Under the pieces are notes generated by a model, which was not told the origin of the DNA, searched no databases, and saw only the letters and a program-made list of their open reading frames with translations. Shown piece by piece: positions 29,925-48,977 of a stretch of DNA of 64,000 nucleotides (the first letter of the stretch is position 1; every line of letters starts with the position of its first letter). The stretch spans positions 24,002 through 88,001 of the forward strand of contig CAZSGW010000001.1 of the NCBI GenBank assembly GCA_964606775.1, read 5' to 3'. The translations under genes were made by a program, and so were the position numbers. This DNA comes from Candidatus Woesearchaeota archaeon (GTDB taxonomy: Archaea; Nanobdellota; Nanobdellia; Pacearchaeales; GW2011-AR1).

Positions 29925-30734
29925 TTAAAGCAATAAATCTTTTTCCCTAAATTTAGGAACACTAGAATATAAACTTTCAGTTAAATACATCTGAATTTCA
30001 GAAATTTCGTCGGAAGAGACTAAGTTTTTCAACTTCTTTTTTCCAAGAGGATTTAAGGTAGTAATAACAAGAGAAGGAAGTCCCTCGACAAGCTCCCCAA
30101 AATTAACAATGGAGTAATTATCTGCTCCAATAACGTTTACTTTTTTAAGTTTTTTTAATTTCCTTTTATCCAAAAAATTTATTTTAGCAAAACCATTAGA
30201 CAACTTAAGATTTCCATCTAATGCGTTAACAAAACTACAACCTAAATCAATATACATAATTTTACACTTATCAGAAAAATCTGGCAAAACCCTATAATTT
30301 TGTCTTCTTCCAATAACATCCGAAACTTCTAAGCTATTCAGGTAAACTTTTTCTTCATTAATTTTTTTCAAAGCATGTTCATCTAAACTAGAATCTTCTT
30401 TTTGTATTTTAGAAATAAAATAGGACTTTCTTCCAGAATGTTCTCTCACATCACTCCCACAATTCACAAAATTCAAATTTCCATTTTCATTCAATAAAAC
30501 AAAATATTTTGAGGTAGCCAATCCCATTTTACGAACCAATTCAAAAGTCGTCGCCTCATAAAAAGGCTGATTTTCTGGAACAAAACTCGAAGGCGCCCTG
30601 ATATTAGAACCAATACAATATTTGAAATATCCTTCAAATTTATTTTTCCCATCGTTAAAAATACAATTACCTCCAGGGTTTCCGCCCTTTCTTTCACTAG
30701 TTATTTTAATTTCCAAATTCCGCATAAAATCCAA
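29925..30734 (-). CDS. Hypothetical protein (269 aa) embedded in the gatD..gatE..aspS..asnS gene string
   Basis: Complete ORF with no recognised motifs. Confidence 0.45.
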   Translation of the reverse strand: MDFMRNLEIKITSERKGGNPGGNCIFNDGKNKFEGYFKYCIGSNIRAPSSFVPENQPFYEATTFELVRKMGLATSKYFVLLNENGNLNFVNCGSDVREHSGRKSYFISKIQKEDSSLDEHALKKINEEKVYLNSLEVSDVIGRRQNYRVLPDFSDKCKIMYIDLGCSFVNALDGNLKLSNGFAKINFLDKRKLKKLKKVNVIGADNYSIVNFGELVEGLPSLVITTLNPLGKKKLKNLVSSDEISEIQMYLTESLYSSVPKFREKDLLL

Positions 30735-30830
30735 AACAAATAAGAATATATAAACCTTTCCTTTATGTAACTTAATAATAGTTACAAATTACCTAAAAAA
30801 CTTTATAATCTAACAAAACGTAAAACAAAT

Positions 30831-31247
30831 ATGAAAAAGAAGGTGGTAAAAAAGTCGAATGAAAAAAAGGGGCTAATCCATAAAATAACGCATCCAAATA
30901 TTCTTCCGAGAACCTTTGGAGAAAAAGCATCAGACAAATTAACCAGCGTTGCAGGTAGTTGGGGATTTATATTGTTTTTCGCAGGATTTCTAATATTATG
31001 GATGATACTAAACACCTCCTGGCTAATATTCGGAAAAGCATGGGACCCAAGACCCTTCATACTCCTAAACCTAATTTTATCTTGTCTAGCAGCATTTCAA
31101 GCACCAATAATTTTAATGAGTCAAAACAGACAAGCAAAAAAAGACCGGCTAAGGGCAGAATACGACTACGCGGTAAACAGAAAATCAGCAAGGGAAATTG
31201 AAGCACTTCAAAAACAACTCAATAGAATTGAAAGAAAACTAAAATAA
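30831..31247 (+). CDS. DUF1003 family membrane protein
   Basis: ..WDPRPFILLNLILSCLAAFQAPIILMSQNRQAKKDR.. matches the conserved DUF1003 core. Confidence 0.65.
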   Translation: MKKKVVKKSNEKKGLIHKITHPNILPRTFGEKASDKLTSVAGSWGFILFFAGFLILWMILNTSWLIFGKAWDPRPFILLNLILSCLAAFQAPIILMSQNRQAKKDRLRAEYDYAVNRKSAREIEALQKQLNRIERKLK

Positions 31248-32534
31248 TTATTCTAACAACCTATCATTAAACTCACCAGAAATATTTTCTAACATTTTTT
31301 CTTTAACATCCCAATCCGAGTGTCCTAAAACCCATCCCAATTTTACTAAGGCAGTTTCACTAAGCATATCCTCTAAGAAAATCAACCCAGTTTTCTCTAA
31401 CTCCCTTCCAGCAGAATAAACCAAAGGATCAACCCTTCCAAAAATACACTGGGAGGTCCCACAAACTACCAAGCCTTTATCCATAACTTCCTTCAATTTA
31501 CGAGTCCAAGAATTCCTAGATTCCGAAGTTGCAACATGACCTAACCCAGTCATTTCAATAACCAGTCCTTTATACTTATTCTTAACATAATAATCCAAAA
31601 TCGAAGGGTCTTGCCCAGGATAAAATTTTAACAACCCGACCTTTTCCTCAAACTTAGAATCACATTTAACTTTCTCCTTGTTCCTTAAATTACTTGTGCC
31701 CTTTAGAGTATAATCAGAAATTTTTTCTATTTTATTGCCTTCAGATGCAGAATAAATCTTTGCAAAAGGTTTATCATTAACAACCTTAAATGCATCTCTC
31801 CTAGAAGTATGCATCTTCTTAACTTTAGTCCCAGGCATAGCATGACAATGATCGTCGTCAGAATTAGCATGGCCAACCAACATAACTTCCGCAATATCAG
31901 AAATAGCCGCCAAAGCAGAACACTTTAAATTCAAATTCGCATCCGACGAAGCTCTATCAATACTCCTCTGAGAATAAGTAAGAACTACTGGCTTATTCAA
32001 CTTCCCAAGAAAAAAACTCAAAGCCACAGAAGTATAATGCAAAATATCCGTCCCATGTGTCACAATAACTCCTTCAATATCCGAATCATTCAAAAAACCC
32101 TCAACAATCTTCGCAATTTTTTTCCAATCTTTAAAATCCATATTTTCAGAACCTTTCATAAACGGAACCTCAACTTTTGAAACATTAACAACATCAAACA
32201 TTTCAGGATAAAATTTAAACAAACTTTCAGGAGAATCAAGCCATTTCACAGCGCCAGTCTTAGAATCATAACGGGAAGCAATTGTCCCTCCAGTAATAAC
32301 CATCGCAACATTAGGCTTAGAAGAATCTTTCTTAACTTCAATACCTCCCTTAACATCTTTCGCCTTTTCCAAAACCTTAATCTCAACAACTTCTTTTTTC
32401 TTCAGACCAATATTATAACCAGTTCCCAACTTCAATAAAACATAATCTTTCTCAGAACTCTCTAAAAGAACACCTTCATAAACTGTCTTCATTAAATGAA
32501 CTTCAACTAAATCTCCAGGATTTGCATTTTTCAT
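31248..32534 (-). CDS. gatD: Glu-tRNA(Gln) amidotransferase subunit D (asparaginase-like)
   Basis: N-terminal GatD-specific domain plus the asparaginase signatures VITGGTIAS and VTHGTDIL; 428 aa. Confidence 0.8.
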   Translation of the reverse strand: MKNANPGDLVEVHLMKTVYEGVLLESSEKDYVLLKLGTGYNIGLKKKEVVEIKVLEKAKDVKGGIEVKKDSSKPNVAMVITGGTIASRYDSKTGAVKWLDSPESLFKFYPEMFDVVNVSKVEVPFMKGSENMDFKDWKKIAKIVEGFLNDSDIEGVIVTHGTDILHYTSVALSFFLGKLNKPVVLTYSQRSIDRASSDANLNLKCSALAAISDIAEVMLVGHANSDDDHCHAMPGTKVKKMHTSRRDAFKVVNDKPFAKIYSASEGNKIEKISDYTLKGTSNLRNKEKVKCDSKFEEKVGLLKFYPGQDPSILDYYVKNKYKGLVIEMTGLGHVATSESRNSWTRKLKEVMDKGLVVCGTSQCIFGRVDPLVYSAGRELEKTGLIFLEDMLSETALVKLGWVLGHSDWDVKEKMLENISGEFNDRLLE

Positions 32535-35446: not shown

Positions 35447-36886
35447 ATGGCAAAAAAATCTCAAGAAGGAATCACAATAAAAAAAGAGGAAAACTTCACG
35501 GAATGGTTTACTCAATTAATGATTAAAGCTGAACTTGCAGATTACTCTTCTGTTTCTGGTTGCATAATTTTTAGACCAAGAGCATATAAACTTTGGGAAA
35601 AAATAAAACAATCTTGTGACGAAGAATTCAAAAAAATTGGAGTAGAGAATTGCTACTTTCCATTATTCATTCCAGAAAAATCTTTCGAAAGAGAGAAAAA
35701 ACACGTTGAAGGATTTGCACCAGAAGTAGCATGGGTGACTCAAGCAGGGAAAACAAAACTAAACGAAAAACTTGCAGTCCGTCCAACATCCGAAGCAATA
35801 ATGTATGAATCGTACTCAAAATGGATAAGAAGTTGGAGAGACTTGCCTTTATTACTAAACCAATGGAATAATGTAGTTCGTTGGGAATTTAACAACCCAG
35901 TTCCATTTTTTAGAACAAGAGAATTTCTATGGAACGAAATGCACACAGCATTTGCAACAGAAAAAGAAGCATTAGATCACGGAAAAAAAGTCATGAAAGC
36001 GTACCATAAAATAACTGAGAAAATAATGGGGCTTCCAGGAATCTACGGAAGAAAAACCGAAAATGAAAAATTCGCAGGAGCAGAATTCACTGAAAAAACA
36101 CATCACTACTTGCCAAACGGAAGGATAATCGAAGGGACTTGTTTTCATTATGACGGACAGAACTTTTCAAAAGCATACGGAATAAAATTCTTAGACCAAG
36201 AAGAAAAAGAACAAGCAGTTTTCCAAAACACCCATGCAATTTCAACAAGAATGCTTGGAACAATGTTCGCTATGCATTCAGACAACTCTGGTTTAGTAAT
36301 ACCTCCAAAAATAGCAGAAAACAAAGTTGCAATAATCCCTCTATTATTCAAAGGGAAAGAGAAAAAAGTTTTAGAAGAAGCAGAAAAAATAAAGAAAGAA
36401 CTAAAATCATTAAACCCAATTTTAGACGCTCGTGAAGATTACTCTCCTGGATGGAAATACTCTGAGTGGGAACTAAAAGGAATCCCCTTAAGAATAGAAA
36501 TCGGTCCAAGAGATTTAGAAAACAAATCTGTAATGATCAAAACAAGAATTGGAAAAGAAAAACAACAAATAAAAATCAAAGATTTGAAAAAAGAAATTCC
36601 AAAAATTCTTGACAAAATGCAAGAAGAACTTTACAAAAGTGCAGAAAAAGAATTAGAAAACTCAATTACAGAAACAACAGACAAAAAAGAATTAATTCAA
36701 TTCATCAAAAACAAAAAAATGGTTAAAGTCCCATTATGTAATTCAAAAAAAGCCGAAGAGCAATTAAAATCAGAAACAGGTGGAGCAAAAACTTTATTCA
36801 TCGATTCTAAAAAAATCGAGGATGAAAAATGCATAATCACAGGAAACAAAGCAGACTACTGGGTTTATGTTGGTAAAACATACTAA
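35447..36886 (+). CDS. proS: Prolyl-tRNA synthetase, archaeal/eukaryotic type
   Basis: Class IIa motifs with the archaeal-type C-terminal extension ending in Tyr (..YWVYVGKTY); 479 aa. Confidence 0.9.
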   Translation: MAKKSQEGITIKKEENFTEWFTQLMIKAELADYSSVSGCIIFRPRAYKLWEKIKQSCDEEFKKIGVENCYFPLFIPEKSFEREKKHVEGFAPEVAWVTQAGKTKLNEKLAVRPTSEAIMYESYSKWIRSWRDLPLLLNQWNNVVRWEFNNPVPFFRTREFLWNEMHTAFATEKEALDHGKKVMKAYHKITEKIMGLPGIYGRKTENEKFAGAEFTEKTHHYLPNGRIIEGTCFHYDGQNFSKAYGIKFLDQEEKEQAVFQNTHAISTRMLGTMFAMHSDNSGLVIPPKIAENKVAIIPLLFKGKEKKVLEEAEKIKKELKSLNPILDAREDYSPGWKYSEWELKGIPLRIEIGPRDLENKSVMIKTRIGKEKQQIKIKDLKKEIPKILDKMQEELYKSAEKELENSITETTDKKELIQFIKNKKMVKVPLCNSKKAEEQLKSETGGAKTLFIDSKKIEDEKCIITGNKADYWVYVGKTY

Positions 36887-36930
36887 AAAACATATTAACA
36901 AATATGAGAAAGGGTAAAAAATAAGACACC

Positions 36931-37041
36931 TTAGTTCTGTACCATTGCACAATTCAATTCTTCCTCAAGCCTTAGAGTTACTTCTAACAAATAACTCAAT
37001 TCCTTGTCGAGGTTTTCTTTTTCCATCTCTTTGTTTTCCAT
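36931..37041 (-). CDS. Possible 36-aa helical micro-ORF (MENKEMEKENLDKELSYLLEVTLRLEEELNCAMVQN) in an otherwise unexplained 385-bp convergent gap
   Basis: Complete ATG..TAA ORF; very weak support. Confidence 0.15.
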   Translation of the reverse strand: MENKEMEKENLDKELSYLLEVTLRLEEELNCAMVQN

Positions 37042-37271
37042 TTTACGGATTTAATTTTCGAGTAGGTTGCCCAAATTTTTGAAGAACTATTACCTTCTTA
37101 ATTCAAGCGGGTTTAACTCGAACTAATTAAAGGTATTTAATAGAGCTAATAAAGACTAAAATAGATGAGTTCTTCCAACACATATTCTTTAGTCCTTCAG
37201 CCATGTAAAATAAAAGTCTCTTTTCTTTTTAAGAGTTTCTATATTTATTTCTTAGTAAAGAGTAGTAAAAG

Positions 37272-38303
37272 TTACTCGATTTTCTCCCTCAAGAAATTCT
37301 CAAATCTCTCCAAATCTTTTTTCATAATTCTTGCCCCAATCGCTCTTTCATGTCCTCCTCCTTTTGCGTTTTCAAATTCAGGCAAAACTTGTTTCAAAAT
37401 TTTCAAAACATTTTCTCCTCTTCCCGAAAGATTAACATTTCCCTGAGAAATATAACCAACAAAAATAGTTTTATCGGGATATAGATATTTCAGATGATTA
37501 GAAACCTCGGAACTCATACTCGTATCTCCTCCATAAGTAAAAAAGAGTAATTGAGAATCTGTAACATTTTCCTTAGCCTTATTCAACAATTTATTGATTT
37601 TCTTTTCTAATTCCTTAAACCTCTCATACATCTCCTCATTTTTCGAAGACTCCTCTAAAATTTCATAAGGGGTTTTAACAGCAGATAAAAACTTTATCAT
37701 CTTCAAAACATTTGTAGTTTTATCCTTTAATCCGAAAGCAAAAATCTGTGCAATCTTTCCCAATTGAGAATTATAATAAATCTCTGTTGCATCATCAGAA
37801 TCTATAGACAAATCAGGAAATTCATCTTTCACATCTTGCCAAAAGTCTGGAACATATTTATCTGAAACACATCCAACAACTGCCAACCAATCATCTCTCT
37901 CAACAACTTGATGACACAAATAAGTTACGGGTTCATTATTCTTATCTTCATTTAACAGAGGATTATAATAATTAACATAATCTGGAAGTTTCTCTTTTTC
38001 AAGTGCATGGTGGTCTATCCAGACAATAGGAATATTAAACTTTTCAAGTTCTCTAAAGAACTCGGGAGTTATCTCAGGAACATCCAAAACAAAAATATAA
38101 TCCGGAGATAATTCATTCACCTTCCGAAAATATCCTTCGTCCATTGGAGAACTTTTCACTGCAACCGCTTTCCCTCTCCCAAGATACCTCTGCAAAAGTA
38201 AAAAACTACAAAGCCCATCCTGATCATTATCAAAGAAGAACAAAGGATTTTGAGCATTATTCAAATGTTCCCTAATTTCACTAATTTGTTTTTTATTCAA
38301 CAT
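37272..38303 (-). CDS. DHH-DHHA1 phosphoesterase, second copy (RecJ/NrnA-like)
   Basis: FFFDNDQDGLCS (DHH) and KGGGHERAIGA (DHHA1). The start is placed at the internal Met (MLNKKQ..); the 33-aa extension in the ORF track overlaps the upstream gene. Confidence 0.7.
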   Translation of the reverse strand: MLNKKQISEIREHLNNAQNPLFFFDNDQDGLCSFLLLQRYLGRGKAVAVKSSPMDEGYFRKVNELSPDYIFVLDVPEITPEFFRELEKFNIPIVWIDHHALEKEKLPDYVNYYNPLLNEDKNNEPVTYLCHQVVERDDWLAVVGCVSDKYVPDFWQDVKDEFPDLSIDSDDATEIYYNSQLGKIAQIFAFGLKDKTTNVLKMIKFLSAVKTPYEILEESSKNEEMYERFKELEKKINKLLNKAKENVTDSQLLFFTYGGDTSMSSEVSNHLKYLYPDKTIFVGYISQGNVNLSGRGENVLKILKQVLPEFENAKGGGHERAIGARIMKKDLERFENFLREKIE

Positions 38304-38325
38304 TTTAAAATAAGAAATATATAAT

Positions 38326-39381
38326 TTAAAAATCCTCCATAATTTCCGTTTGAAGCTTTTTGTAACCAAAAAAATCAGTAGCATAATTATAAGCCCCTGC
38401 ATTCAGAAATACAATCTCCTCACCAACATCAACTGAAGAATCAAGTTTAACTCTATACCTAAAAATATCATCACGAGTAGGGGAATTCCCCTTAATCAAA
38501 AAATAAGAACCTTCCTCGCAATCACTCTTCTCACCCTCAACAAACATCTTAGTATTTGTTAATAAATTATCCAAAGAACAATTATAAATTGAAACATTCA
38601 AAATCAAATTACCTTCATACTTTTGAATTATTTTTGTAACAAGTTTTACACATGGGGCAGCAACAAATCTTCCAGGTTCTATAACCGAACTAATTCCTTT
38701 ATCAGCAAGCCAATCAACAGCATCCTTCAACTTAGCAAAGATATAATCAAAAACATCAACACTAGAACTTCTATAAACCGAGGGTAAACCCCCTCCAAGA
38801 TTAACTAAATTCAATCTCTTCAAACTATCTTCTGTCAAAGAATCTTCCAAATCAGAAACAATATCCCATTCAGAAGTATTCTGACTTTTCCTATGAATGT
38901 GGACTCCAAGAAGGCCAATAAATTCATTATCCTTAATTTCCGAAATAAACTCATTAACTTTTGAAGAAGACATCCCATAAACAAAATATTTTCCAGTTCC
39001 AATTCTATGCTCTTGAAATTTCATTCTTAAAGACAAATTTATTTTAATTTTTTCAGATTCAATAACTCGTAACAACCTCCTAAAATCAACCTCGTTATCA
39101 ACAACAAAATTCCTCACTCCTTCAAAAAGAATTTTTTTCAAATCCTCAAAAGATTCAGCCTGATTAAAAAACCAAATCTTATTCTTTTCCTTAATATCCT
39201 TAATCTCATCCTCAGAATGAATAGAATAATCAACATCGTTACATTCAGGCATTTCCTGAAGAACATTTCCAACTTCACGATTTGTCTTATATGAATAAGA
39301 AACTTTCAAACCAATTTCTTCAAGCTTCCTAACTTGTTCCAAAAGAACTTTCTTAGACAAAACAAATTTAGCATCATCCAT
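38326..39381 (-). CDS. Fold-type III PLP-dependent decarboxylase (Orn/Arg/DAP decarboxylase family, compact 351 aa)
   Basis: PLP-lysine motif SYSYKTN (compare FYAVKCN), glycine-rich loop GGGLP, and EPGR. Confidence 0.7.
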   Translation of the reverse strand: MDDAKFVLSKKVLLEQVRKLEEIGLKVSYSYKTNREVGNVLQEMPECNDVDYSIHSEDEIKDIKEKNKIWFFNQAESFEDLKKILFEGVRNFVVDNEVDFRRLLRVIESEKIKINLSLRMKFQEHRIGTGKYFVYGMSSSKVNEFISEIKDNEFIGLLGVHIHRKSQNTSEWDIVSDLEDSLTEDSLKRLNLVNLGGGLPSVYRSSSVDVFDYIFAKLKDAVDWLADKGISSVIEPGRFVAAPCVKLVTKIIQKYEGNLILNVSIYNCSLDNLLTNTKMFVEGEKSDCEEGSYFLIKGNSPTRDDIFRYRVKLDSSVDVGEEIVFLNAGAYNYATDFFGYKKLQTEIMEDF

Positions 39382-40315
39382 CTAAAAGCCCTTCCTTTTT
39401 CATTTCATCTAAAACACCAACCATCATTAAAGGAAAAGTTATACAAACATCTCCGTTAACTGTTGCAGCTTCACCATCATCCTTAATCTTACCCCAAGAC
39501 TTGGCTTCCTGTGTGGTGGCTCCAGACATAGAACCCGAAGAAGAATGACTTGTAGTAAGATAAACTGCATAATCAAAACCTCCAGAAAGAAGCGAAGAAA
39601 AAACGGCATAATGTTTTGAAATACTTCCTCCCAAAGAAATCAAACCCTTCCTCTCATCAAAACTTAGATCTTCTGTAACTCTTTTCATATCTAAAAGAGT
39701 ATCTACAATAAAATCAGGGTGTTTTTGTTGAAACATATAAAGCTGAAAACCAAAACTCGAATCAGCAATACCGGGACAATAAATTGGAATATTATTCTTT
39801 GCCGCTTGATACAAAATAGAACCCTCATCATCAATCATCAAACCAATTTCATAAAGCAATTCTGAAACAGGAATTCTCTTTTTCTTTCCATAAATTTTTT
39901 CTAAAAACTTACTCATACTATCTTCAAACTTCATATAACTTTTAGTATGAATCAAGATGTTGCCCACCCTATTTTCTCCTCTTTCATGTAAAGCAGTATC
40001 ATCAGAATTAAACGAAACAACCTCAAAATCTTCTCCAAAAGACTTCATAATGTCCTCTTCTATAGCTCCAGAAGTTGTAACCAAAATATTTGGAATTTTC
40101 TCTTTACATAATTGAGCAAAAAAACCTCTTAAACCAGAGGTAACCATATTTGAAGTAAATGTCAAAAAAATCTTTGCACCAGACCTCTTCATTTTCAAAA
40201 CAACTTTCGCCGCTTCCGACAACTCAACAGCCTGATAACCTAAAGAGCCATAGCTATCCAAAAGTTCAGATACTTTCATTCCCCCATGCCACAAAAAATC
40301 TTTAACCTTTTTCAT
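39374..40315 (-). CDS. dys: Deoxyhypusine synthase
   Basis: ..IFLTFTSNMVTSGLRG.., ..GGSISKHY.. and overall DHS length (313 aa); 8-nt overlap with the decarboxylase gene. Confidence 0.85.
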   Translation of the reverse strand: MKKVKDFLWHGGMKVSELLDSYGSLGYQAVELSEAAKVVLKMKRSGAKIFLTFTSNMVTSGLRGFFAQLCKEKIPNILVTTSGAIEEDIMKSFGEDFEVVSFNSDDTALHERGENRVGNILIHTKSYMKFEDSMSKFLEKIYGKKKRIPVSELLYEIGLMIDDEGSILYQAAKNNIPIYCPGIADSSFGFQLYMFQQKHPDFIVDTLLDMKRVTEDLSFDERKGLISLGGSISKHYAVFSSLLSGGFDYAVYLTTSHSSSGSMSGATTQEAKSWGKIKDDGEAATVNGDVCITFPLMMVGVLDEMKKEGLLDG

Positions 40316-40477
40316 TTTATAAAGAAGTCCAGACTAGAATTATAGAATTGGTATAGCCAAACAAATCCTAAATTCTCTTATCATACAACAGCTAAAAACA
40401 TCCCATTTTTAAGGGTTTCGAAACATCTTTTTCTTCACGAAAATCTTTTTAAACTAAAGTAAAGTCATAATTCTACA

Positions 40478-40663
40478 ATGAATAAAATATTAAGCGTTTT
40501 AATCGGGCTAATCCTTTTGGTAATTCCTATATATGCGTGGGTTATGAACTCGTACGGGCTAGGAAATGCTGCGATGCTTTTCCTCAAGGGAGGAATCATG
40601 TGGGGAGTTATATTAATTGGTTTAGTATTAATCCTCCTAGGATTAAATAGTCTTAGCGACTAA
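40478..40663 (+). CDS. Small two-TM membrane protein (61 aa)
   Basis: Two hydrophobic helices; weak support. Confidence 0.3.
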   Translation: MNKILSVLIGLILLVIPIYAWVMNSYGLGNAAMLFLKGGIMWGVILIGLVLILLGLNSLSD

Positions 40664-41244
40664 CTTAACGAAATTAAAATACCTTCTATAACAGCTGCAA
40701 AAATTAAAAGGGGAACAATAAATAGTACGAAGACCTTTATTGATTTTTTTAAACGTTCCAAAAATATCTTCTGATTTTTATTAAAAACACTTGCCCCAAT
40801 TCTTAAGCCTAAACCAAAGGAAACTATTATGGCGGGCAACTCAAAAATCCCGTGGGGAAAAAGTCTCCATAAGGATAATATTCCCGAAGATTGGACAGAC
40901 ATAGAAGCGACAAAGCCCAAAACATAACCATTAATAAGAGTATAAATAATAGGAAAAATTCCGAAGAAAATTCCAAAAACCATCCCAAAGAAACCACTTT
41001 TCAGATTATTAAAGAAAATAAAATTAATCAATTCTAAAGAAGACATTCCAGAAGTTTTATCCAAGAGGTCTGAAATAAACACAATGATTTGATTCAATAC
41101 AGCTTCAGGAGGAGAAATAAAAAAACCAATCAAACTCGAAAACAAAAAAAGTCCGCAGATTATCCAAATAAATTTTCTAGACTCTCGAAGATAATTCCAC
41201 GCTTCAATATACTCCTTTTTCAAATTAAATCTCTTTTTCATCAA
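40660..41244 (-). CDS. SpoIIM/DUF95-family membrane protein
   Basis: ..LFPHGIFELPAIIVSFGLGL.. is the conserved core of the stage II sporulation protein M family; 5 TM helices. Confidence 0.6.
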   Translation of the reverse strand: MMKKRFNLKKEYIEAWNYLRESRKFIWIICGLFLFSSLIGFFISPPEAVLNQIIVFISDLLDKTSGMSSLELINFIFFNNLKSGFFGMVFGIFFGIFPIIYTLINGYVLGFVASMSVQSSGILSLWRLFPHGIFELPAIIVSFGLGLRIGASVFNKNQKIFLERLKKSIKVFVLFIVPLLIFAAVIEGILISLS

Positions 41245-41921
41245 CTAAAATGTTTGCCGATTCTTTTTATTTTATTTCTATAATTATGCCTAAGATAAAT
41301 TCCATAAATCAAACCAGTAATCAAACCCCCCAAATGTGCAGTATTCCCAATAGGAATGTCTGCTGCTGCAGATATTCCCCATAAAGCCAAAAGCAACCCT
41401 GGAGCCGCATACTTCAATTTTATCGGAATTGGAACAAACATAACATAAACGGGAAGATTAGGAGTCAAAAGCATTAAAGTTCCGACCAAACCAAACAAAG
41501 CCCCCGAAGCACCAACAGCATAAGTATTCAAAGCAGAAGGATTAAAAAAATAAGTAATCAAAACAAAAAACAATCCCGCAAATAAACCAGCAATCAAATA
41601 AAAATAAAGATACCTTTTCTGTCCCAAAATTCTCTGGAGTAAACTCCCAACAAAAAACAAAGAAAGCATATTCACAAATAAATGAAAAATCATGTTCGGG
41701 CTATGCATAAACATGCTTGTTAAAAAAGTCCAGAGATATTTTCCTTGAAGAACATTTGAAGGATTCAAAGCAATATGATTAAGAGTCAAAATTTTTGTAG
41801 ACATTAAAATAAAAAAAGCAATAAAGAAGATAACATTAGCCAAAATAATCCAAGTATTTACACTCAAACTTCCAAAAATATTTCTTTTTTTCTTAGGAGA
41901 AATCTCATAACTATAATCCAT
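41241..41921 (-). CDS. Rhomboid-family intramembrane serine protease
   Basis: The GASGALFGL catalytic Ser motif and the TM6 His in NTAHLGGLITG. Confidence 0.8.
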   Translation of the reverse strand: MDYSYEISPKKKRNIFGSLSVNTWIILANVIFFIAFFILMSTKILTLNHIALNPSNVLQGKYLWTFLTSMFMHSPNMIFHLFVNMLSLFFVGSLLQRILGQKRYLYFYLIAGLFAGLFFVLITYFFNPSALNTYAVGASGALFGLVGTLMLLTPNLPVYVMFVPIPIKLKYAAPGLLLALWGISAAADIPIGNTAHLGGLITGLIYGIYLRHNYRNKIKRIGKHFS

Positions 41922-41951
41922 AAAAAACTAACATACTCTCAATTTATAAAA

Positions 41952-42707
41952 CTATTTTTTCTTCGAAGTTTTCTTCTTAGCTACTTTCTTTTTAGATGTC
42001 TCTTTCTTCGCAACTTTTTTCTTCGAAGTTTTCTTCTTAGCTACTTTCTTTTTAGATGTCTCTTTCTTCGCAACTTTTTTCTTTGTTGTCTTCTTAGCAG
42101 TAGCCTTCTTTTTAGCAGCTCTCTTATCTGCCTTTTCCTTAGCCAATTTCTTCTTTTCTTTTTCCTTAATCTTCTCCTCTTTTTCTAGTTCTTTATTAAT
42201 TTCCTCCTCAACTAAAACCAATTTCTTTTCATACTTATCCTTGTTTCTTTTTAATTCCCTTAATAATTTGGCATTATCCTTTAAAGTAAAAACATCTCCA
42301 CATTCAGAACAAAGAAAATTCTGTAATAAAGCATTATCTTCGTTGAATTCAATCCCGCACCTCTCACAAACATAAAATTGTTTAGTTTCTCTATTACTTA
42401 TCTGTTGATTAAAGATATTTAGTCTTTTAATTAAAATTTCTTTCAAATACTCTAATGCTTTTAGCTTTTCTATTTTCCAAAAATAAGTATACCACCCTTT
42501 CTTTTTATCTTTCTTCCTTATCGAAGAAACTAAACCCTGGTCAGAAAATTTATACAAAAGATTCCTTATCTGGTTTATAGTCATATCGGTTTTTTTTGCA
42601 AGTATAAATTCGTTAACATGTTTCTTAGAATTAAGCAAATCTGCCATCGGTTCCGCGGGCTTTCCAGCGACGTCGACAACCACCTCTTTAAGAAACTCAT
42701 CAATCAT
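41952..42707 (-). CDS. tfe: Transcription factor E alpha (TFE/TFIIE-alpha homolog) with a Lys-rich repeat tail
   Basis: Winged helix ..INQIRNLLYKFSDQGLVSSIRKKDKKKGWYTYFWKI..; zinc ribbon CERCG..CSECG; a C-terminal 80 aa of (KKKVAKKETSKKKVAKKKTS)n. The start is placed at the internal MIDEF; the upstream 68 codons in the ORF track look non-coding. Confidence 0.6.
   Translation of the reverse strand: MIDEFLKEVVVDVAGKPAEPMADLLNSKKHVNEFILAKKTDMTINQIRNLLYKFSDQGLVSSIRKKDKKKGWYTYFWKIEKLKALEYLKEILIKRLNIFNQQISNRETKQFYVCERCGIEFNEDNALLQNFLCSECGDVFTLKDNAKLLRELKRNKDKYEKKLVLVEEEINKELEKEEKIKEKEKKKLAKEKADKRAAKKKATAKKTTKKKVAKKETSKKKVAKKKTSKKKVAKKETSKKKVAKKKTSKKK
41961..42080. repeat. Perfect 60-bp tandem duplication (2 copies, plus a diverged third) encoding the Lys-rich tail of TFE
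   Basis: 41961..42020 and 42021..42080 are identical: cttcgaagttttcttcttagctactttctttttagatgtctctttcttcgcaactttttt. Confidence 0.9.
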
Positions 42708-42830
42708 AACTGATATAAAAAAGATTATTATTAAATACCTTTCGGTCAGACATTTTCGAATAAACTCCCTGAGACAATAAAAAAAAACATTTTTAAACCT
42801 ATATTCTATCATATATATAATAAAAAAGAG

Positions 42831-43391
42831 ATGTTCAAACATACAATGGGTTTGTTTAATAAAAAAAAGAAGGTGAAAAAAATTTCTATGTCTGAAAACG
42901 AAGTTCCCCAATTACCTAGATTAGATCTTCCAAAATTTAAAGAGCCAATTCATCAATTACCTCAACTACCTTCAAACTCAGTAGGAGAAAGATTTTCTCA
43001 GAACTCTATAAAAGAAAGTGTTGCTGGGGGAAAAGAGGATGAGTTGGAAGAGGAAGATTTCGAGCAAATAAGTAGTCCTCTTTCAGCTCCAAGAGGGATT
43101 ACTGAAGAAATATCGGAACCTCCAGCAATAAGAACGCCTACAAGAACAACTAACTCAAGAACTAAATCTCCAAAAGAACCAATATTTGTTAGAATTGACA
43201 AATTCGAGGAAGGCTTAGAAATATTTGAAAAATCACGAGATAAAATTCACGAGATGGAAAAAATACTTCAAGACATAAAAAAACTTAAAGACGAAGAACA
43301 AAAAGAAATAGAAATGTGGGAACAAGAAATATCTACAATGAAAAGTCAGATTGAAAAAGTAGATAAAGATATTTTTTCTAGAATAAAATGA
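42831..43391 (+). CDS. Hypothetical protein with Pro/Thr-rich disordered middle region and C-terminal coiled coil (186 aa)
   Basis: ORF divergent from tfe. Confidence 0.4.
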   Translation: MFKHTMGLFNKKKKVKKISMSENEVPQLPRLDLPKFKEPIHQLPQLPSNSVGERFSQNSIKESVAGGKEDELEEEDFEQISSPLSAPRGITEEISEPPAIRTPTRTTNSRTKSPKEPIFVRIDKFEEGLEIFEKSRDKIHEMEKILQDIKKLKDEEQKEIEMWEQEISTMKSQIEKVDKDIFSRIK

Positions 43392-43744
43392 CTGAAAATC
43401 TTCATGTAAGAGTAGAATACGAAGAACTATACAACTCAAAAAAAGACGTTCTAATATTGCAAGCAAGTATTTTAAGAGGATTGCAAAATTTAAAGAAATA
43501 CAAAGAGTCAAGAGCAACAGAACTAAAAAAGAAAAATAATCTTCTAAGAAACCTCAAATCAGTAAAAAGTAATTTCACAAAATTAAAACAAACACTTCCA
43601 AAAGTTGAAGAACCAAAAAGTTCAAAGGAAGAAGATAAAGAGCTTCCAAAACTTCCAAGAAACAAAACAAAAGATAAAGAGCAAAATAAGATTGAATCAG
43701 AATTAGAAAAAATACAAAAGAAACTTAGGCAACTAGGCGGCTAA
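43388..43744 (+). CDS. Coiled-coil hypothetical protein (118 aa), translationally coupled (ATGA overlap) to the preceding ORF
   Basis: Heptad-rich K/E sequence. Confidence 0.4.
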   Translation: MTENLHVRVEYEELYNSKKDVLILQASILRGLQNLKKYKESRATELKKKNNLLRNLKSVKSNFTKLKQTLPKVEEPKSSKEEDKELPKLPRNKTKDKEQNKIESELEKIQKKLRQLGG

Positions 43745-43797
43745 TTTAAAACAAATCCCACAAAAAAGAATATAAAACATAATTCTCTTAGAAAAAT

Positions 43798-45492
43798 ATG
43801 AAAAGAACAGAACTCATTAAAAAATACATAGAATTTTTCAAGGCAAAAGGACACAAGGAAATATCAAATTCTTCGTTAATCCCAAAAGATGACCCGACGG
43901 TATTATTTACAACTGCCGGAATGCACCCTCTTGTACCTTTCCTACTCGGACAAAATCATCCCTCTGGAAAAAAATTATGTAACGTCCAAAGATGTATTAG
44001 AACAGGAGACATCGAAGAAGTAGGTGACGAAACACACCACACATTTTTTGAAATGTTGGGGAATTGGAGTTTAGGTGAATACTGGAAAAAAGAATCAATA
44101 GAATATAGCTACGATTTTCTTAAAAACAAATTAAATATTCCCAAAGAAAAAATTTCAGTTACTTGTTTTAAAGGAGAAGGAAAAATACCTAAAGACAAGG
44201 AAGCAGAAGAAACTTGGAAATCCCTTGGAATTGCAAAAGAAAAAATAAAATTCCTTGGAAAAAAAGACAACTGGTGGGGACCAGCAGGAACGACGGGACC
44301 ATGTGGGCCAGACACAGAAATTTTTGTAGACGGAATAGAAATATGGAACAATGTTTTTATGCAATACAAAAAAGATAAAGAAGGAAATTATAAACCGGCA
44401 AAACAAAAAAACATAGACACAGGAATGGGTGTTGAAAGGACTCTTGCATTCTTAAATAATACAAAAGACAACTATTTGGGGGAAACGTTCAAGCCAATAA
44501 TAGAAAAGATAGAAAAAATATCAAAGAAAAAATATTTGGAAAACAAAAAAGAAATGAGAATAATAGCGGACCATATTAAAGCAGCTGTTTTCATAATTGC
44601 CGACGGAATAATTCCTTCAAATAGAGAACAAGGTTATGTTCTGAGAAGATTAATCAGAAGAGCAATAAGATACGGAAGAGAATTAAAATTAGAAAATTTC
44701 GTTACTAAAATCGCAGAACCAGTTTTCGAAATTTATACTGATTACGAAATCCTAAAAGAATTTAAAGAGAAAATCACAGACGAATTAAAAAGAGAAGAAG
44801 AAAAATTCAACAAAACAATAGAAAAGGGACTAAAAATATTTAAAAAAATAACAAAAGGAAAAAAAGAATTGGGATGTGAAGATTCATTCTTACTATACCA
44901 AAGTTATGGATTTCCCAGTGAAATGATTGAAGAAGAATGCAAAAAAAATAAAATAAAATTCTCAATAAAATCCTTTGAGAAAGAATGTAAAAAGCATCAA
45001 GAACTATCAAGAACAGCATCGGCAGGAAGATTCAAATCTGGATTAGCAGATGATTCAGAACGAACAAAAAAATTACACACCGCAACACATTTACTACACG
45101 CAGCACTAAAGATAGTTCTAAAAGACAAAAATATAATTCAAAAAGGTTCGAACATAAATCCAGAAAGATTGAGATTCGATTTTAATTTTCCAAGAAAGTT
45201 AACAAAAGAAGAAATAAAAGAAATTGAAGACTTAGTAAATTCAGAAATACAAAATTCTTGTGAGATAAAAAGAGAAGAAATGACTCCCGAAGAAGCAAAA
45301 GTCTCAGGTGCTTGTGGAATATTCGATAAAAAATACGGAGAAAAAGTTTCAGTATACTCAATTGGAAATTTTTCAAAAGAAATTTGTACCGGGCCTCATG
45401 TAAAAAATACTTGCGAATTAGGAAAATTCAAAATCAAAAAAGAAGAATCTTCAAGTTCTGGTGTTAGAAGAATTAAAGCTATTTTAAAATAA
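43798..45492 (+). CDS. alaS: Alanyl-tRNA synthetase, short form (catalytic + tRNA-recognition + editing core; no C-Ala domain)
   Basis: FTTAGMHP, QRCIRTGDIEEVGDETHHTFFEMLGNWSLGEY, editing HxxxH (TATHLLH) and CTGPHV; only 564 aa. Confidence 0.8.
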   Translation: MKRTELIKKYIEFFKAKGHKEISNSSLIPKDDPTVLFTTAGMHPLVPFLLGQNHPSGKKLCNVQRCIRTGDIEEVGDETHHTFFEMLGNWSLGEYWKKESIEYSYDFLKNKLNIPKEKISVTCFKGEGKIPKDKEAEETWKSLGIAKEKIKFLGKKDNWWGPAGTTGPCGPDTEIFVDGIEIWNNVFMQYKKDKEGNYKPAKQKNIDTGMGVERTLAFLNNTKDNYLGETFKPIIEKIEKISKKKYLENKKEMRIIADHIKAAVFIIADGIIPSNREQGYVLRRLIRRAIRYGRELKLENFVTKIAEPVFEIYTDYEILKEFKEKITDELKREEEKFNKTIEKGLKIFKKITKGKKELGCEDSFLLYQSYGFPSEMIEEECKKNKIKFSIKSFEKECKKHQELSRTASAGRFKSGLADDSERTKKLHTATHLLHAALKIVLKDKNIIQKGSNINPERLRFDFNFPRKLTKEEIKEIEDLVNSEIQNSCEIKREEMTPEEAKVSGACGIFDKKYGEKVSVYSIGNFSKEICTGPHVKNTCELGKFKIKKEESSSSGVRRIKAILK

Positions 45493-45501
45493 TAATCGCA
45501 A

Positions 45502-46530
45502 TTACAAACCGTAATTAAGTTTCAATGACTCATACTGCTTCTTTTGAAAATAATTTAGCTTGTTACCATCCAAAATTTTACTTCTATACTTCGTCCATTT
45601 TTCCGCATCTTCATATTCATAAATCACTGGTAACTTAGCTCCAGAAGAAATTTTAAAGCTCTGAGGGTCTGAAGAAAGGTAGCCAAACCAAGAATAATAA
45701 CCATTATCAAAAGTAATAATAGAAGGAGTTGTAGTTTCAACAAAACATCTCTCCTTCTCCTCACAACCAATCCAAACCGCTTCATGATTCTCAATAGGAT
45801 AATAAAAAAATCCTGATTCATAATCTAACTTCTTCAATAAAAACAACAACAATGCAGATTTCTCTCCACAAATTCCTTTTTCATCATACAAAACCTCGTA
45901 AGGATATCTTGAATGAATCAGAACCGAATTAGAAAACTGAGAAGTCTTATTTGAAAAGCCGTAAGGAATATTTTGAACAAGACTAACAGCAATCCTGGCC
46001 TGGTCAATTTTATCCGAAGTAATATTTTGAATTTTAATTACCAACTCAGATAAAAAAACATCCTGAACCTCCTCTCCAATAAAATTTTCCTTAAAATCTT
46101 TCCTTGTAACTTCCTGTCCATCAGAATAAATATTTCTCGGCAATTCTGAAAGATAATCATTAAGCCCCCTATAAACTTCAAGATTAACAAAATCTTTTTT
46201 CCCTCTCAAAATATAATTTAAGCTAAGAGGTTTACCTCCAGTTTGGTAATCTGATCTACATGAACCATCCGCCATCTCATCAAAAAACTCTGGGCACCCA
46301 CAAGAATAATTTATCTCTAAACTTCCATTATTACAATAATAAGGTTTCGTAAAAGAACACCTCCCAAACAAAGTTCCGTCTCCACATGAATCATTCACCT
46401 TAACAAGTTCTTTTGGTTCGGCAATATTAAAATACAAAATACCTACAAGAAGAAACAATCCCAAAAGAATTATCCAAAACCGATTTATTCCCGGCCTTTT
46501 CTCTTCTTTATCACTCTTTTTTTTACTCAT
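45502..46530 (-). CDS. Membrane-anchored transglutaminase-like cysteine protease superfamily protein with Cys-rich ectodomain
   Basis: N-terminal TM; GICGEKSALLLFLL (catalytic Cys) ..NHEAVWI (His) arranged as in the TGase-like core; 4-nt overlap with leuS. Confidence 0.45.
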   Translation of the reverse strand: MSKKKSDKEEKRPGINRFWIILLGLFLLVGILYFNIAEPKELVKVNDSCGDGTLFGRCSFTKPYYCNNGSLEINYSCGCPEFFDEMADGSCRSDYQTGGKPLSLNYILRGKKDFVNLEVYRGLNDYLSELPRNIYSDGQEVTRKDFKENFIGEEVQDVFLSELVIKIQNITSDKIDQARIAVSLVQNIPYGFSNKTSQFSNSVLIHSRYPYEVLYDEKGICGEKSALLLFLLKKLDYESGFFYYPIENHEAVWIGCEEKERCFVETTTPSIITFDNGYYSWFGYLSSDPQSFKISSGAKLPVIYEYEDAEKWTKYRSKILDGNKLNYFQKKQYESLKLNYGL

Positions 46531-48977
46531 TCTAAATAAATTCCAGGTTTTCCAGGTTTAGCTTTCTTAGAAACATTATTAGGATCAAATTTTTCAGAAT
46601 CGTTAACTGCAAAAATTTTAACCGCTTTCCCAACCCTTTTACACACTTCAGTTTCATCATAAAACTCTCTCTCATGTGGAAGAACATAGACAAATACCTT
46701 TTCTTTTTTCTCGCCCTTAGTACCCATAATTTTCAAAATATTAACAATATCTGAAACTAATTTTTCTTGAGCTTGTTCTTGTTTCTCAAAAGTTTCATCA
46801 ATCTTTTTTTCTTCTGCTTCTGGCCATTTTGATAAACTAATTAATTTTTTATTTCCTATTTTTTCCCAAAGTTCCTCTGTGATATGTGGACAAAAAGGAT
46901 GTAATAATTTCAGAGATTTTTCTAAAACTTCTTTTGAAGTGTTTTTTGGAAGAGAATTAAATAACTCTCTAATTTTAATAATTGCTAAATTGTATTTGAA
47001 ATTATCAATTTGATTTGTTACTTCTTTAATGACTTTATTTAATTTGCTTTCTGTTTTTGCATCTGCTTCTGAAGCTTCAAAATTTTCAAAATAATTCATT
47101 ACTTTGCTCAAAAACTTCTGGCTCCCAATTAAAACTTTCTCATCCCAATTTGTATCTGAATTAGGAGAGGCAAAACTCATTAATGCCAATCTCAAAGAAT
47201 CTGAACCATAAACTCTAATAACATCTAAAGGATTAATAACATTTCCTCGAGATTTTGACATTTTTTCTCCATCTTCTCCGTGGAGCATTCCTTGATTAAA
47301 TAAACTTTGAAAAGGTTCATCAAAGTTTAAGAAGCCTAAATCTCTCAAAGCTTTTGTGAAAAATCTTGCATAAATCAAATGCATGCATGCGTGTTCTGCA
47401 CCTCCAATGTATTGGTCAACTGGCATCCAGTATTTTACTTTGTCTTTTGAAAATGCATTTGAAGTATTCTCTGGATCACAATATCTTAGATAGTACCAAG
47501 AAGAGTCAAAAAAGGTATCCATTGTGTCTGTTTCTCTTTTAGCATCACCTCCACATTTCGGACACGCGACATTAACCCAATCTTCATTTGTCTCCAAAGG
47601 ATTTCCTTCACCAAATTTAACCTCTTTAGGAAGTTCAACAGGCAATTCTTCTTCAGGAACTGGAACAGCTCCGCATTTTTCGCAATGTATTACTGGAATT
47701 GGAGTTCCCCAGTATCTTTGTCTTGAAACTAACCAATCTTTTAATTTAAATTGAACAGCTTCTTTTCCTAGTTTACTCTCTTCTAAATAATCCGTAATTT
47801 TTTTCTTTGCTTCTTGATTATCTAATTCATTAAAATTTCCTGAATTAATTAATTGTCCTTCACCCGTGTAGGCTTCAGCTTCATCCCATTCAAAATCTTT
47901 TGGATCAATTACTTGTTTAATCTCAATACCATACTTCTTTGCAAAAGCAAAATCTCTTTTATCATGAGCAGGAACTGCCATAACCATTCCAGAACCATAA
48001 TCAGCAACTACAAAGTTTCCTGCATAAATTGGAACTTTTTCATTGTTTATTGGATTAATTGCATATGAACCTGTGAAAACGCCTTCTTTTTCTAAATTCT
48101 CTAATTCCTTTTCAGAAACTGATTTTAATTTTTTAAGAAATTTTTCAACTTCTGGTTTTTGTTCTGGTGTTACTATGTCCATTAGTTTTTCGTGTTGTGC
48201 GGAAATAACCACGAAAGTTACTCCGAAAATTGTATCGGGACGAGTTGTGAAAACAGGCCATTTTTCCCCTTCAATATCAAAATCAATCTCAGTTCCATAA
48301 CTCTTTCCAATCCAATTTTTTTGCATAGTTTTAATTCTATGGGGCCAATCTAAATCATCTAATTTATCCAAAAGTTCATCAGCATAATCTGTTGTTTTTA
48401 TGAACCACTGCTCCAAAGGTTTAATTTCCACTTCAACATCTTCATGTCTCCAACACTTCCCATTTTGGACCTGTTCATTTGCTAAAACAGTTTCACATTT
48501 CGGACACCAATTAACATTAGCTTTCTTTCTATACACCAGCCCTTTTTCTAAAAACTTCAAAAACAAAAATTGATTCCACCTATAATACTCTAGCGAAGAG
48601 GTACTAACCATCCTTGACCAATCATAACTTAAACCCAAAGATTTTTGTTGCTGAATAAAATTAGAAATTGAATTTTCAGTATAATATTTAGGATGCTCGC
48701 CCGCCTTTATAGCTGCATTCTCAGCCGGAAGTCCAAAAGAGTCATAACCCATTGGATAAAGAACATTAAAATTCTGCATTCTTTTGAATCTAGCACGAAT
48801 ATCACCGATGGTATAATTCAAGGCATGACCCATATGCAAACCACTTCCTGAAGGATAAGGAAACATTTCAAGAACATAATATTTTTCTCTATCTGAATTA
48901 TCAACAACACGAAAAATTTCTTCCTCTTCCCACTTTTTCTGCCACTTTTTTTCTATTTCCTGAAAGTCGATTTCCAT
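46527..48977 (-). CDS. leuS: Leucyl-tRNA synthetase, bacterial type
   Basis: MFPYPSGSGLHMGH, GYDSFGLPAENAAIK, NWCPKCETVLANEQV, NWIGKS and KMSKS, collinear with E. coli LeuS. Confidence 0.9.
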   Translation of the reverse strand: MEIDFQEIEKKWQKKWEEEEIFRVVDNSDREKYYVLEMFPYPSGSGLHMGHALNYTIGDIRARFKRMQNFNVLYPMGYDSFGLPAENAAIKAGEHPKYYTENSISNFIQQQKSLGLSYDWSRMVSTSSLEYYRWNQFLFLKFLEKGLVYRKKANVNWCPKCETVLANEQVQNGKCWRHEDVEVEIKPLEQWFIKTTDYADELLDKLDDLDWPHRIKTMQKNWIGKSYGTEIDFDIEGEKWPVFTTRPDTIFGVTFVVISAQHEKLMDIVTPEQKPEVEKFLKKLKSVSEKELENLEKEGVFTGSYAINPINNEKVPIYAGNFVVADYGSGMVMAVPAHDKRDFAFAKKYGIEIKQVIDPKDFEWDEAEAYTGEGQLINSGNFNELDNQEAKKKITDYLEESKLGKEAVQFKLKDWLVSRQRYWGTPIPVIHCEKCGAVPVPEEELPVELPKEVKFGEGNPLETNEDWVNVACPKCGGDAKRETDTMDTFFDSSWYYLRYCDPENTSNAFSKDKVKYWMPVDQYIGGAEHACMHLIYARFFTKALRDLGFLNFDEPFQSLFNQGMLHGEDGEKMSKSRGNVINPLDVIRVYGSDSLRLALMSFASPNSDTNWDEKVLIGSQKFLSKVMNYFENFEASEADAKTESKLNKVIKEVTNQIDNFKYNLAIIKIRELFNSLPKNTSKEVLEKSLKLLHPFCPHITEELWEKIGNKKLISLSKWPEAEEKKIDETFEKQEQAQEKLVSDIVNILKIMGTKGEKKEKVFVYVLPHEREFYDETEVCKRVGKAVKIFAVNDSEKFDPNNVSKKAKPGKPGIYLE

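Follow-up and report, generated by a model that had tools for sequence, protein, structure and literature searches.

A deoxyhypusine synthase homolog paired with a compact PLP decarboxylase in a DPANN archaeon: candidates for an agmatine-dependent module

Which amine would serve an archaeal deoxyhypusine synthase (DHS) whose gene is tied to that of a decarboxylase? Hypusine or deoxyhypusine on a/eIF5A is usually given as the reason why spermidine is essential in eukaryotes and archaea. The use of agmatine instead of spermidine in some archaea has been raised for Haloferax, but not settled (Prunetti et al. 2016, PMC5178350), and Li et al. (2026) ask explicitly whether archaea encode an agmatine-dependent DHS. 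This question is posed anew by the gene dys and an adjoining gene for a compact decarboxylase of the pyridoxal 5'-phosphate (PLP)-dependent type, which lie in a stretch of 64,000 nucleotides (nt) of contig CAZSGW010000001.1 (assembly GCA_964606775.1, Candidatus Woesearchaeota archaeon), referred to below as the window. The window has a G+C content of ~32%, and the nearest database matches of its proteins are labelled Pacearchaeota or Nanoarchaeota (DPANN archaea). A preliminary description had placed dys, the decarboxylase gene and a DHH phosphoesterase gene in one cluster on one strand. All three open reading frames (ORFs) exist, run head to tail on the minus strand in the ORF list of the window and match the corresponding Pfam families, with one start codon corrected. 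The features are as follows (lengths in amino acids, aa):

39374..40315, minus strand: dys, 313 aa, archaeal-type DHS homolog with a predicted hydrophobic (agmatine-type) substrate pocket; PF01916
38326..39381, minus strand: compact alanine-racemase-fold (AR-fold) PLP decarboxylase of an unnamed family, 351 aa; PF02784
37272..38303, minus strand: DHH/DHHA1 phosphoesterase, 343 aa, RecJ/Cdc45-like; PF01368 and PF02272
39374..39381, minus strand: 8-nt overlap of the dys stop with the decarboxylase start, ATGGATGA, read from the sequence
40339..40346, minus strand: TATA-like TCTATAAT, 24–31 nt upstream of the dys ATG, by sequence reading alone

The dys–decarboxylase pair and the DHS pocket

The strongest result of the analysis is that dys and the decarboxylase gene behave as a unit across widely diverged lineages. 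Close relatives of the locus were sampled as 61 loci from species-representative genomes, of which 53 extend upstream by 900 nt or more and were counted for linkage. In every one of these 53, dys precedes the decarboxylase gene on the same strand; the gap is at most 60 nt in 42 loci, usually with an overlap of 4–11 nt, measures 61–1000 nt in eight, and has grown to an insertion of 2–2.7 kb in three. Such adjacency is far beyond chance. Since much of the linkage among the close loci possibly reflects shared ancestry, seven increasingly distant members of the decarboxylase family were examined, and a DHS gene lies upstream in all seven (26–47% identity). Identities to the query decarboxylase are 42% for P0126, 38% for P0130, 32% for P0144, 30% for P0156, 31% for P0164, 30% for P0175 and 26–29% for P0203. 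The contigs with enough flanking sequence (L063, L065, L072, L073 and L075) represent four unrelated archaeal neighbourhoods, L065 and L073 having one aminoacyl-tRNA synthetase neighbour in common, and two others (L064 and L068) are too short for the neighbourhood to be judged. On L075, the DHS gene lies ~440 nt from the decarboxylase gene, with an opposite-strand ORF of 74 aa in between.

In the window, the 8-nt overlap suggests translational coupling of the two genes. The TATA-like element may hint at an archaeal promoter for a leaderless dys–decarboxylase transcript. The same pair was also encountered on two contigs (L040 and L045) filed under a Patescibacteria metagenome-assembled genome (MAG) and an 'uncultured Methanosarcinales' MAG, which are probably mis-binned DPANN contigs.

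Judged by its homology, the dys product is overall an archaeal DHS. It matches PF01916 over profile positions 1–286 of 288 (E=9e-92), and its best NCBIfam models are the two archaeal DHS equivalogs, with scores below the cutoff in both cases (NF002294, 312.7 vs 350; TIGR00321, 288.3 vs 304.25). A near-cutoff score of this kind would fit a fast-evolving DPANN protein. Among solved structures, the best matches are likewise archaeal DHS. The SpeY-type model NF002699 gives 109.4 bits against a cutoff of 500. Furthermore, the protein is 37–39% identical to the archaeal enzymes 8put and 7cmc and to the Haloferax pHV3 DHS, compared to 23% for the SpeY proteins of Trichormus and Sphingomonas. Conservation is also higher than in the decarboxylase: identities among the top 120 homologs are 79–86% for the DHS and 63–72% for its partner.

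The substrate pocket was compared by aligning the window protein to solved DHS structures, with residues numbered as in the human enzyme. Relative to human DHS (7a6s), Lys329 (in the motif SWGKI), His288, Glu323 and Trp327 are kept, and these four residues are also present in all 57 decarboxylase-linked homologs. The residues that anchor spermidine are replaced. In human DHS, Asp316 binds N1 of spermidine, and Asp243 and Asn292 bind N10 and also hold putrescine (PMC7226451); the corresponding residues of the dys protein are Met, Phe and Phe. All 57 linked homologs have Phe at position 243, and position 316 is Met in 38, Leu in 11, Phe in seven and Ile in one, while position 292 is Phe, Leu or Ile in the eight sequences aligned there. 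Three further, distant linked copies have Phe, Phe and Met at position 243.

As the DHS homolog search itself gave only close DPANN relatives, control sequences were taken from a plasmid collection, from Protein Data Bank alignments and from E. coli. Positions 243 and 316 are Phe and Leu in Trichormus SpeY, Phe and Cys in Sphingomonas SpeY, Asp and Asp in human DHS, Asp and Leu in the Pyrococcus DHS 7cmc, Thr and Leu in the archaeal DHS 8put, and Asn and Leu in the Haloferax pHV3 DHS paralog. These residues indicate that position 243 tracks the agmatine enzymes and that position 316 does not discriminate. The CdmS/SpeY enzyme of Thermus, which couples two agmatine molecules, has a pocket in which only Phe204 and Leu286, at the two Asp positions, depart from human DHS (PMC10981699). 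The pocket of the dys product thus looks suited to agmatine rather than to spermidine, as far as aligned residues can tell. At position 288, the window protein keeps His and has no insertion, while the Trichormus and Sphingomonas SpeY proteins have Asn with an insertion.

A third type of DHS-family protein was found on DPANN-like contigs (L081:8720-9622, L082:9376-10281 and L127:7545-8456). It has Leu at position 243, Asn at position 288 with the insertion GGGTPKNFIQQS, and Ser at position 316, and is ~30% identical to all the others. Its gene directly adjoins that of a compact ureohydrolase, and L081 retains the synteny from the DHH gene to the prolyl-tRNA synthetase (ProRS) gene seen in the Pacearchaeota loci. 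No AR-fold decarboxylase was found nearby on these three contigs, nor, by Pfam, an alternative arginine decarboxylase (ADC) in the vacant slot.

The decarboxylase and its occasional ureohydrolase partner

The motifs for which the decarboxylase was originally recognised, namely SYSYKTN (containing Lys32), GGGLP and EPGR, are all found in the protein, and the PLP machinery is kept as Lys32, His163, Gly196-198, Glu235-Pro-Gly-Arg238 and Tyr331. The sole Pfam match is PF02784 (Orn_Arg_deC_N, 60.8 bits), and the best NCBIfam match is the lysA model TIGR01048, with 59.8 bits against a cutoff of 297.9. Neither the decarboxylase nor any of ten more distant relatives reaches an NCBIfam cutoff, and hence no name can be transferred to the family. 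The family is narrow: when 1.84 billion cluster representatives were searched exhaustively, only 43 clusters passed E<=1e-30 and 133 passed E<=1e-10.

The AlphaFold2 (AF2) model of the decarboxylase has a pLDDT of 93.2. In Foldseek searches, it is about equidistant from ornithine decarboxylase (ODC), SbnH, the Vibrio lysine/ornithine decarboxylase (L/ODC), the PBCV-1 ADC, D-ornithine/lysine decarboxylase (DOKDC) and diaminopimelate decarboxylase (DAPDC), with E-values of ~1e-22 to 1e-24, 16–21% identity and TM-scores of 0.75–0.82 across the whole protein. Profile–profile alignment (hhalign) ranks an ODC-type enzyme (179) above E. coli LysA (127) and E. coli SpeA (79). Several catalytic or specificity-setting residues of the known enzymes, here in ODC numbering, have been exchanged: Asp88 corresponds to Ser53, Asp332 to Val263 (Val, Thr, Cys or Ala across the family), Cys360 to Pro301 and Asp361 to Thr302 (Thr, Asp or Cys across the family). 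Invariant residues specific to the family are Asp271, Asp305, Trp172 and Tyr203, the first of which aligns with an Asp of the Sphingomonas SpeY-linked enzyme (hhalign). These comparisons set the decarboxylase apart as a member of a distinct compact family, in which the active-site Cys and Asp that are canonical elsewhere are missing. The loop at query positions 298–305, where the catalytic Cys usually lies, depends on the clade: it reads KGNSPTRDD in the clade of the window and KGCTPCSLD or KGCTPDSLD in intermediate clades. The canonical site itself is a conserved Pro, with Cys residues occurring either at the next position or two positions earlier.

Part of the related loci encode a ureohydrolase. 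In the database proteins P0025, P0051, P0060 and P0122 and the genome loci L005 and L052, a PF00491 domain is joined to the C-terminus of the decarboxylase, in each case with all Mn-ligand motifs. A compact ureohydrolase of ~245 aa occurs as a separate gene on L029, L030, L039, L041, L047, L050, L053, L059, L064, L077-L080, L088 and L132, where it precedes dys, follows or overlaps the decarboxylase gene, lies one or two genes away, or is divergently transcribed. The candidate ADC always adjoins the linked DHS, while a ureohydrolase, adjacent or fused, lies within 10 kb in 10 of the 61 close loci (~16%, about one in six) and is missing from this window.

The Mn-ligand motifs of the ureohydrolase (GGDHS, DAHxD and SxDxD) are invariant in 11 sequences. 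The loop from DAHxD to the His aligns without gaps to that of the E. coli agmatinase SpeB (probability 99.4%), and the SGNxH segment of arginase 6dkt is absent. SGNxH is the motif by which bacterial and animal arginases bind the alpha-carboxylate. The proteins score below the cutoff of the agmatinase equivalog (TIGR01230, 66–132 bits vs 174.3), with similar scores on the arginase model. Caution is also advised by Fusobacterium, in which a fusion of a decarboxylase to an arginase-fold domain is an ODC (PMC8503589). Homologs of the ureohydrolase at 36–44% identity (most of the loci L083-L156) are abundant and lie for the most part on low-GC metagenome contigs, where neither a DHS nor a decarboxylase gene occurs within 8 kb. 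As ureohydrolase homologs thus occur far from any DHS, the gene may lie elsewhere in the present genome or be absent from it.

A possible route from arginine to aIF5A and its rivals

The fusions to a ureohydrolase, the pocket of the linked DHS and the bacterial precedents (PMC13625781) lead us to infer that the decarboxylase is an arginine decarboxylase. We consider it an even chance that such an ADC feeds an agmatine-dependent archaeal DHS in a coupled module of two genes, or of three where the ureohydrolase is present, probably for the deoxyhypusination of aIF5A. In this pathway, the decarboxylase would convert L-arginine to agmatine, which the DHS would oxidise with NAD+ to carry a 4-guanidinobutyl group on its active-site lysine, as the pocket residues and the SpeY/CdmS precedent suggest. 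The group would most likely pass to the conserved lysine of aIF5A and form N-epsilon-(4-guanidinobutyl)lysine, as in the model proposed for Haloferax, and the agmatinase-like ureohydrolase of about one-sixth of the related loci would trim this residue to deoxyhypusine. The DHS may also couple two agmatine molecules (toward homospermidine), as a side reaction or in parallel.

The preliminary description had proposed the decarboxylase as the source of the amine donor by an agmatine or a putrescine route. Its functional tie to dys and its distinction from LysA are supported, and the agmatine route is favoured over the putrescine route. This preference is drawn from the ureohydrolase fusions and neighbours, the agmatinase-length loop, the lost spermidine anchors and the SpeY/CdmS-like residue at position 243 (PMC10981699). 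The archaeal-DHS character of the dys product, its strong conservation and the small genomes favour aIF5A as the acceptor, possibly with both activities in one enzyme; the richness of the window in translation genes was counted toward the same character. The locus was also correctly described as lying apart from other polyamine genes, as far as the 46 window ORFs of at least 150 aa are concerned. When these were scanned against Pfam, PF01916 in dys was the sole polyamine-related family, and no arginase-fold, aminopropyltransferase, S-adenosylmethionine decarboxylase (AdoMetDC), pyruvoyl-ADC or TiaS family was found.

Several observations weigh against an agmatine-dependent aIF5A modification by this pair. 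Beyond the gene identities, the linkage counts, the residue patterns and the folds, which are shown, the enzymatic activities, the donor and the acceptor are all inferred. The link between Phe243 and agmatine comes from a docking model (PMC10981699) and a handful of control sequences, and Leu316 is shared by the archaeal DHS controls 8put and 7cmc, which makes position 316 uninformative. Regarding the decarboxylase, the residues that canonically donate the proton or set the specificity (Cys360, Asp361 and Asp332) are replaced, and the fold search gives no substrate class, with ODC, ADC, L/ODC, SbnH, DOKDC and DAPDC scoring alike. The substrate is therefore unreadable from the sequence and has to be taken from context, so that the proposed comparison of specificity residues excluded LysA but could not tell ADC from ODC or other activities. 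The low share of loci with a nearby ureohydrolase counts on the same side, as does the lack of any arginase-fold gene in the 64-kb window when searched by tblastn with the fused ureohydrolase domain. In addition, no credible aIF5A hypusination loop was found by strict or loose motifs in the window or in any fetched locus, and there is thus no direct linkage to aIF5A.

The last point also speaks for a purely polyamine pathway, in which agmatine coupling followed by the ureohydrolase would yield homospermidine, while aIF5A would either depend on a different enzyme for its modification or stay unmodified. The bacterial SpeY/CdmS enzymes that couple agmatine have the same Phe243 pocket (PMC10981699), bacterial clusters of ADC, SpeY and SpeB make homospermidine (PMC13625781), and Michael and colleagues took the DHS homolog of similar DPANN clusters as SpeY (PMC10407285), which also speaks against the aIF5A route. 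Homospermidine stays a serious rival, since these genomes may hold a second, canonical DHS. Nevertheless, the window protein is much closer to archaeal DHS than to bacterial SpeY in both identity and model score (NF002294 vs NF002699), it keeps His288 and has no insertion, unlike both bacterial SpeY proteins and the SpeY-like DPANN proteins on L081, L082 and L127, and dys is very strongly conserved. Reduced DPANN genomes would moreover be expected to hold a single DHS homolog, which would be needed for aIF5A. We therefore regard a homospermidine pathway as possible but somewhat unlikely. A putrescine route, in which the ureohydrolase would be an arginase, the decarboxylase an ODC and putrescine or a derivative the DHS substrate, appears improbable. 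It is in line with the Fusobacterium fusion (PMC8503589), with the best profile alignment of the family being to an ODC-type enzyme, with the slightly better scores of the L050 and L053 ureohydrolases on the arginase than on the agmatinase model, and with 8d27 as the top match of the ureohydrolase. However, the ureohydrolase loop has the length of an agmatinase loop and lacks the SGNxH of 6dkt, both putrescine-holding residues of human DHS (D243 and N292; PMC7226451) are Phe here, and the decarboxylase lacks D332 and D361, which hold the delta-amine of ornithine in ODC. Furthermore, every tested AR-fold ODC homolog located beside a DHS homolog proved to be an ADC (PMC13625781).

It is very improbable that the locus makes spermidine via carboxylated intermediates, with a carboxyspermidine or carboxyaminopropylagmatine decarboxylase and an aminopropylagmatine ureohydrolase feeding a conventional DHS. 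The known pathway likewise uses an AR-fold decarboxylase and a ureohydrolase (PMC10599626), and some distant family members have weak nspC matches (22–67 bits). The window decarboxylase has no nspC match, none of the three spermidine anchors is left in the linked DHS, and no dehydrogenase of the carboxyspermidine (CASDH) or carboxyaminopropylagmatine (CAPADH) type lies beside the pair in the window, L065, L072, L073 or L075, where all genes were annotated with Pfam. An ordinary LysA (DAPDC) that stands beside dys by chance can be considered effectively refuted, even though the lysA model is the best NCBIfam match. The score is far below the cutoff (59.8 vs 297.9 bits), E. coli LysA trails the ODC-type enzyme in profile alignment, and the signature residues of LysA are absent: Pro301 and Thr302 stand in place of the Cys and Glu of CESGD, and Leu270 in place of the RP-motif Arg that contacts the distal carboxylate. 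The decarboxylase gene is also conserved beside dys in unrelated contexts and down to 26% identity. The grouping with DAPDCs and the fortuitous adjacency that would have spoken against a role beside dys were thus both contradicted.

This locus and ~70 related loci are candidates for an agmatine-dependent archaeal DHS. The candidate system would consist of a DHS with three hydrophobic anchors, a dedicated decarboxylase and sometimes a ureohydrolase, in organisms with minimal genomes. A broader proposal, to which we attach rather little probability, is that a wide range of DPANN archaea natively use agmatine as the donor in modifying aIF5A, with the DHS–decarboxylase pair as a self-contained 'arginine to deoxyhypusine' kit. 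In genomes truly without a ureohydrolase, the mature aIF5A residue may be N-epsilon-(4-guanidinobutyl)lysine, a hypusine analogue that has not been described, and bacterial SpeY may descend from an agmatine-type archaeal DHS of this kind.

Surroundings of the pair and comparison with known systems

The DHH/DHHA1 gene starts at the ATG at 38303, 22 nt past the decarboxylase stop, so that these two genes do not overlap. A start at 38402, giving an ORF of 376 aa, is over-extended, as the gene caller, the homolog lengths (343–357 aa) and the sequence agree on 38303. The protein has the invariant DHH motifs I-IV (D25/D27/D29, D74, D97-H98-H99 and D148) and the invariant GGGH motif of DHHA1 (G315-H318). 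Its AF2 model (pLDDT 93.1) has as top Foldseek matches the M. thermautotrophicus RecJ-Cdc45 protein 7bjq (E=1.1e-16), the M. jannaschii RecJ2, the P. furiosus RecJ and the DNA-replication-protein entries 5ghr/7e15, which we take to be T. kodakarensis GAN. The TMq to RecJ-Cdc45/RecJ2 is 0.70, and the PAP phosphatase 8a8k also matches. The protein scores 36–46 bits on the NCBIfam RecJ models, with cutoffs of 360–397, and is ~100 aa shorter than those nucleases. Structurally, it resembles a minimal archaeal RecJ/Cdc45-like nuclease, presumably of the replication or repair type.

In 40 of the 61 close loci, the DHH gene stands at most 10 kb from the pair, downstream or upstream and always on the same strand; ProRS and other neighbours in synteny occur at a comparable frequency. 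The DHH gene is missing from the distant contexts with enough flank (L065, L072, L073 and L075). Its linkage is therefore a lineage-specific synteny, and its earlier assignment to one operon with dys and the decarboxylase gene does not extend to the conserved module. A second, more canonical DHH/DHHA1 protein (23800..24768, minus strand, 322 aa; PF01368, 56.7 bits; PF02272, 49.8 bits) is encoded between genes for a TYW3 methyltransferase and a metallo-beta-lactamase-fold protein, and is 23% identical to the one next to the decarboxylase.

The window is unusually rich in translation genes, which lie at 10626..32534 and 35447..50521. They encode methionyl-tRNA synthetase (MetRS), another class-I aminoacyl-tRNA synthetase (aaRS), eRF1, ProRS, alanyl- and leucyl-tRNA synthetases (AlaRS and LeuRS), a tRNA-splicing endonuclease and TYW3; two adjacent class-II aaRS paralogs of the Asp/Lys/Asn type are followed by GatE- and GatD-like genes. 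Five tRNA genes are also present. The AlaRS ORF (43798..45492, plus strand) has only 564 aa and ends just past the tRNA_SAD editing domain, so that the enzyme appears to lack the usual C-terminal (C-Ala) domain. A TFE (TFIIE-alpha-like) protein (41952..42911, minus strand) has a long lysine-rich C-terminal tail of near-tandem repeats (KKKVAKKETSKKK...), and its listed TTG start is probably too far upstream, as homologs measure 229–297 aa. An ORF of 1310 aa (60061..63993, minus strand) has no Pfam match at E<=1e-4, and further ORFs of 170–420 aa without a Pfam match lie at 8171..8794, 19901..20557, 20606..21523, 29925..30734, 45502..46530 and 52422..53684.

Compared with known systems, the dys–decarboxylase locus varies a known module consisting of an ADC, a DHS homolog and a ureohydrolase. 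Clusters of an ADC, a DHS homolog and an agmatinase have been validated in bacteria (PMC13625781). These bacterial clusters with SpeY/CdmS share with the present loci and their relatives the trio of a decarboxylase, a DHS-family enzyme and a ureohydrolase, and their SpeY/CdmS proteins likewise have Phe at human D243, a non-acidic residue at D316 (hydrophobic here) and the catalytic Lys. Sphingomonas resembles the window further in having an AR-fold decarboxylase directly beside the DHS homolog, although the enzyme is encoded directly upstream of SpeY there, whereas the order here is DHS and then decarboxylase. The DHS in the window differs from bacterial SpeY in being of the archaeal type (23% identity), with His288 kept and without the SpeY insertion; the decarboxylase comes from a compact family of its own, in which the canonical Cys and Asp are missing, and the host is an archaeon, which needs a modified aIF5A.

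In DPANN archaea, an AR-fold decarboxylase paired with a DHS was not found described in the literature searched. Clusters of an ADC and a DHS homolog have been seen in DPANN MAGs (Woesearchaeota and Diapherotrites), with speDA, speY and speB or aguAB (PMC10407285). They resemble the present loci in that an ADC stands beside a DHS homolog and a hydrolase that processes agmatine. However, the ADC of those clusters is a non-homologous pyruvoyl enzyme, a neofunctionalised AdoMetDC that was assayed, while the candidate here is PLP-dependent with an AR fold. The closest precedent for the proposed chemistry is the model for Haloferax volcanii, in which DHS transfers an agmatine-derived group to the lysine of aIF5A and an agmatinase-like enzyme finishes the reaction (Prunetti et al. 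2016, PMC5178350, Fig. 1d). This model is unproven in vitro and has never been demonstrated. As in the dys product, the spermidine-binding residues of the Haloferax DHS are not conserved, and DHS and ureohydrolase genes are linked as neighbours. In haloarchaea, aIF5A, agmatinase and DHS genes cluster and the pyruvoyl ADC lies elsewhere, whereas here the fixed pair consists of the DHS and a PLP decarboxylase, with aIF5A not nearby.

The decarboxylase itself shares with other AR-fold decarboxylases, such as eukaryotic-type ODC, the PBCV-1 ADC, the Vibrio L/ODC, SbnH and DAPDC, the fold, the PLP Lys, the stacking His, the Gly-rich loop, EPGR and the C-terminal Tyr. It differs from them in its length of 351 aa compared to ~370–460 aa, in reaching no curated cutoff and in having invariant residues of its own. 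A compact PLP decarboxylase family without the canonical Cys and Asp residues bears on how substrate specificity evolves in the AR fold.

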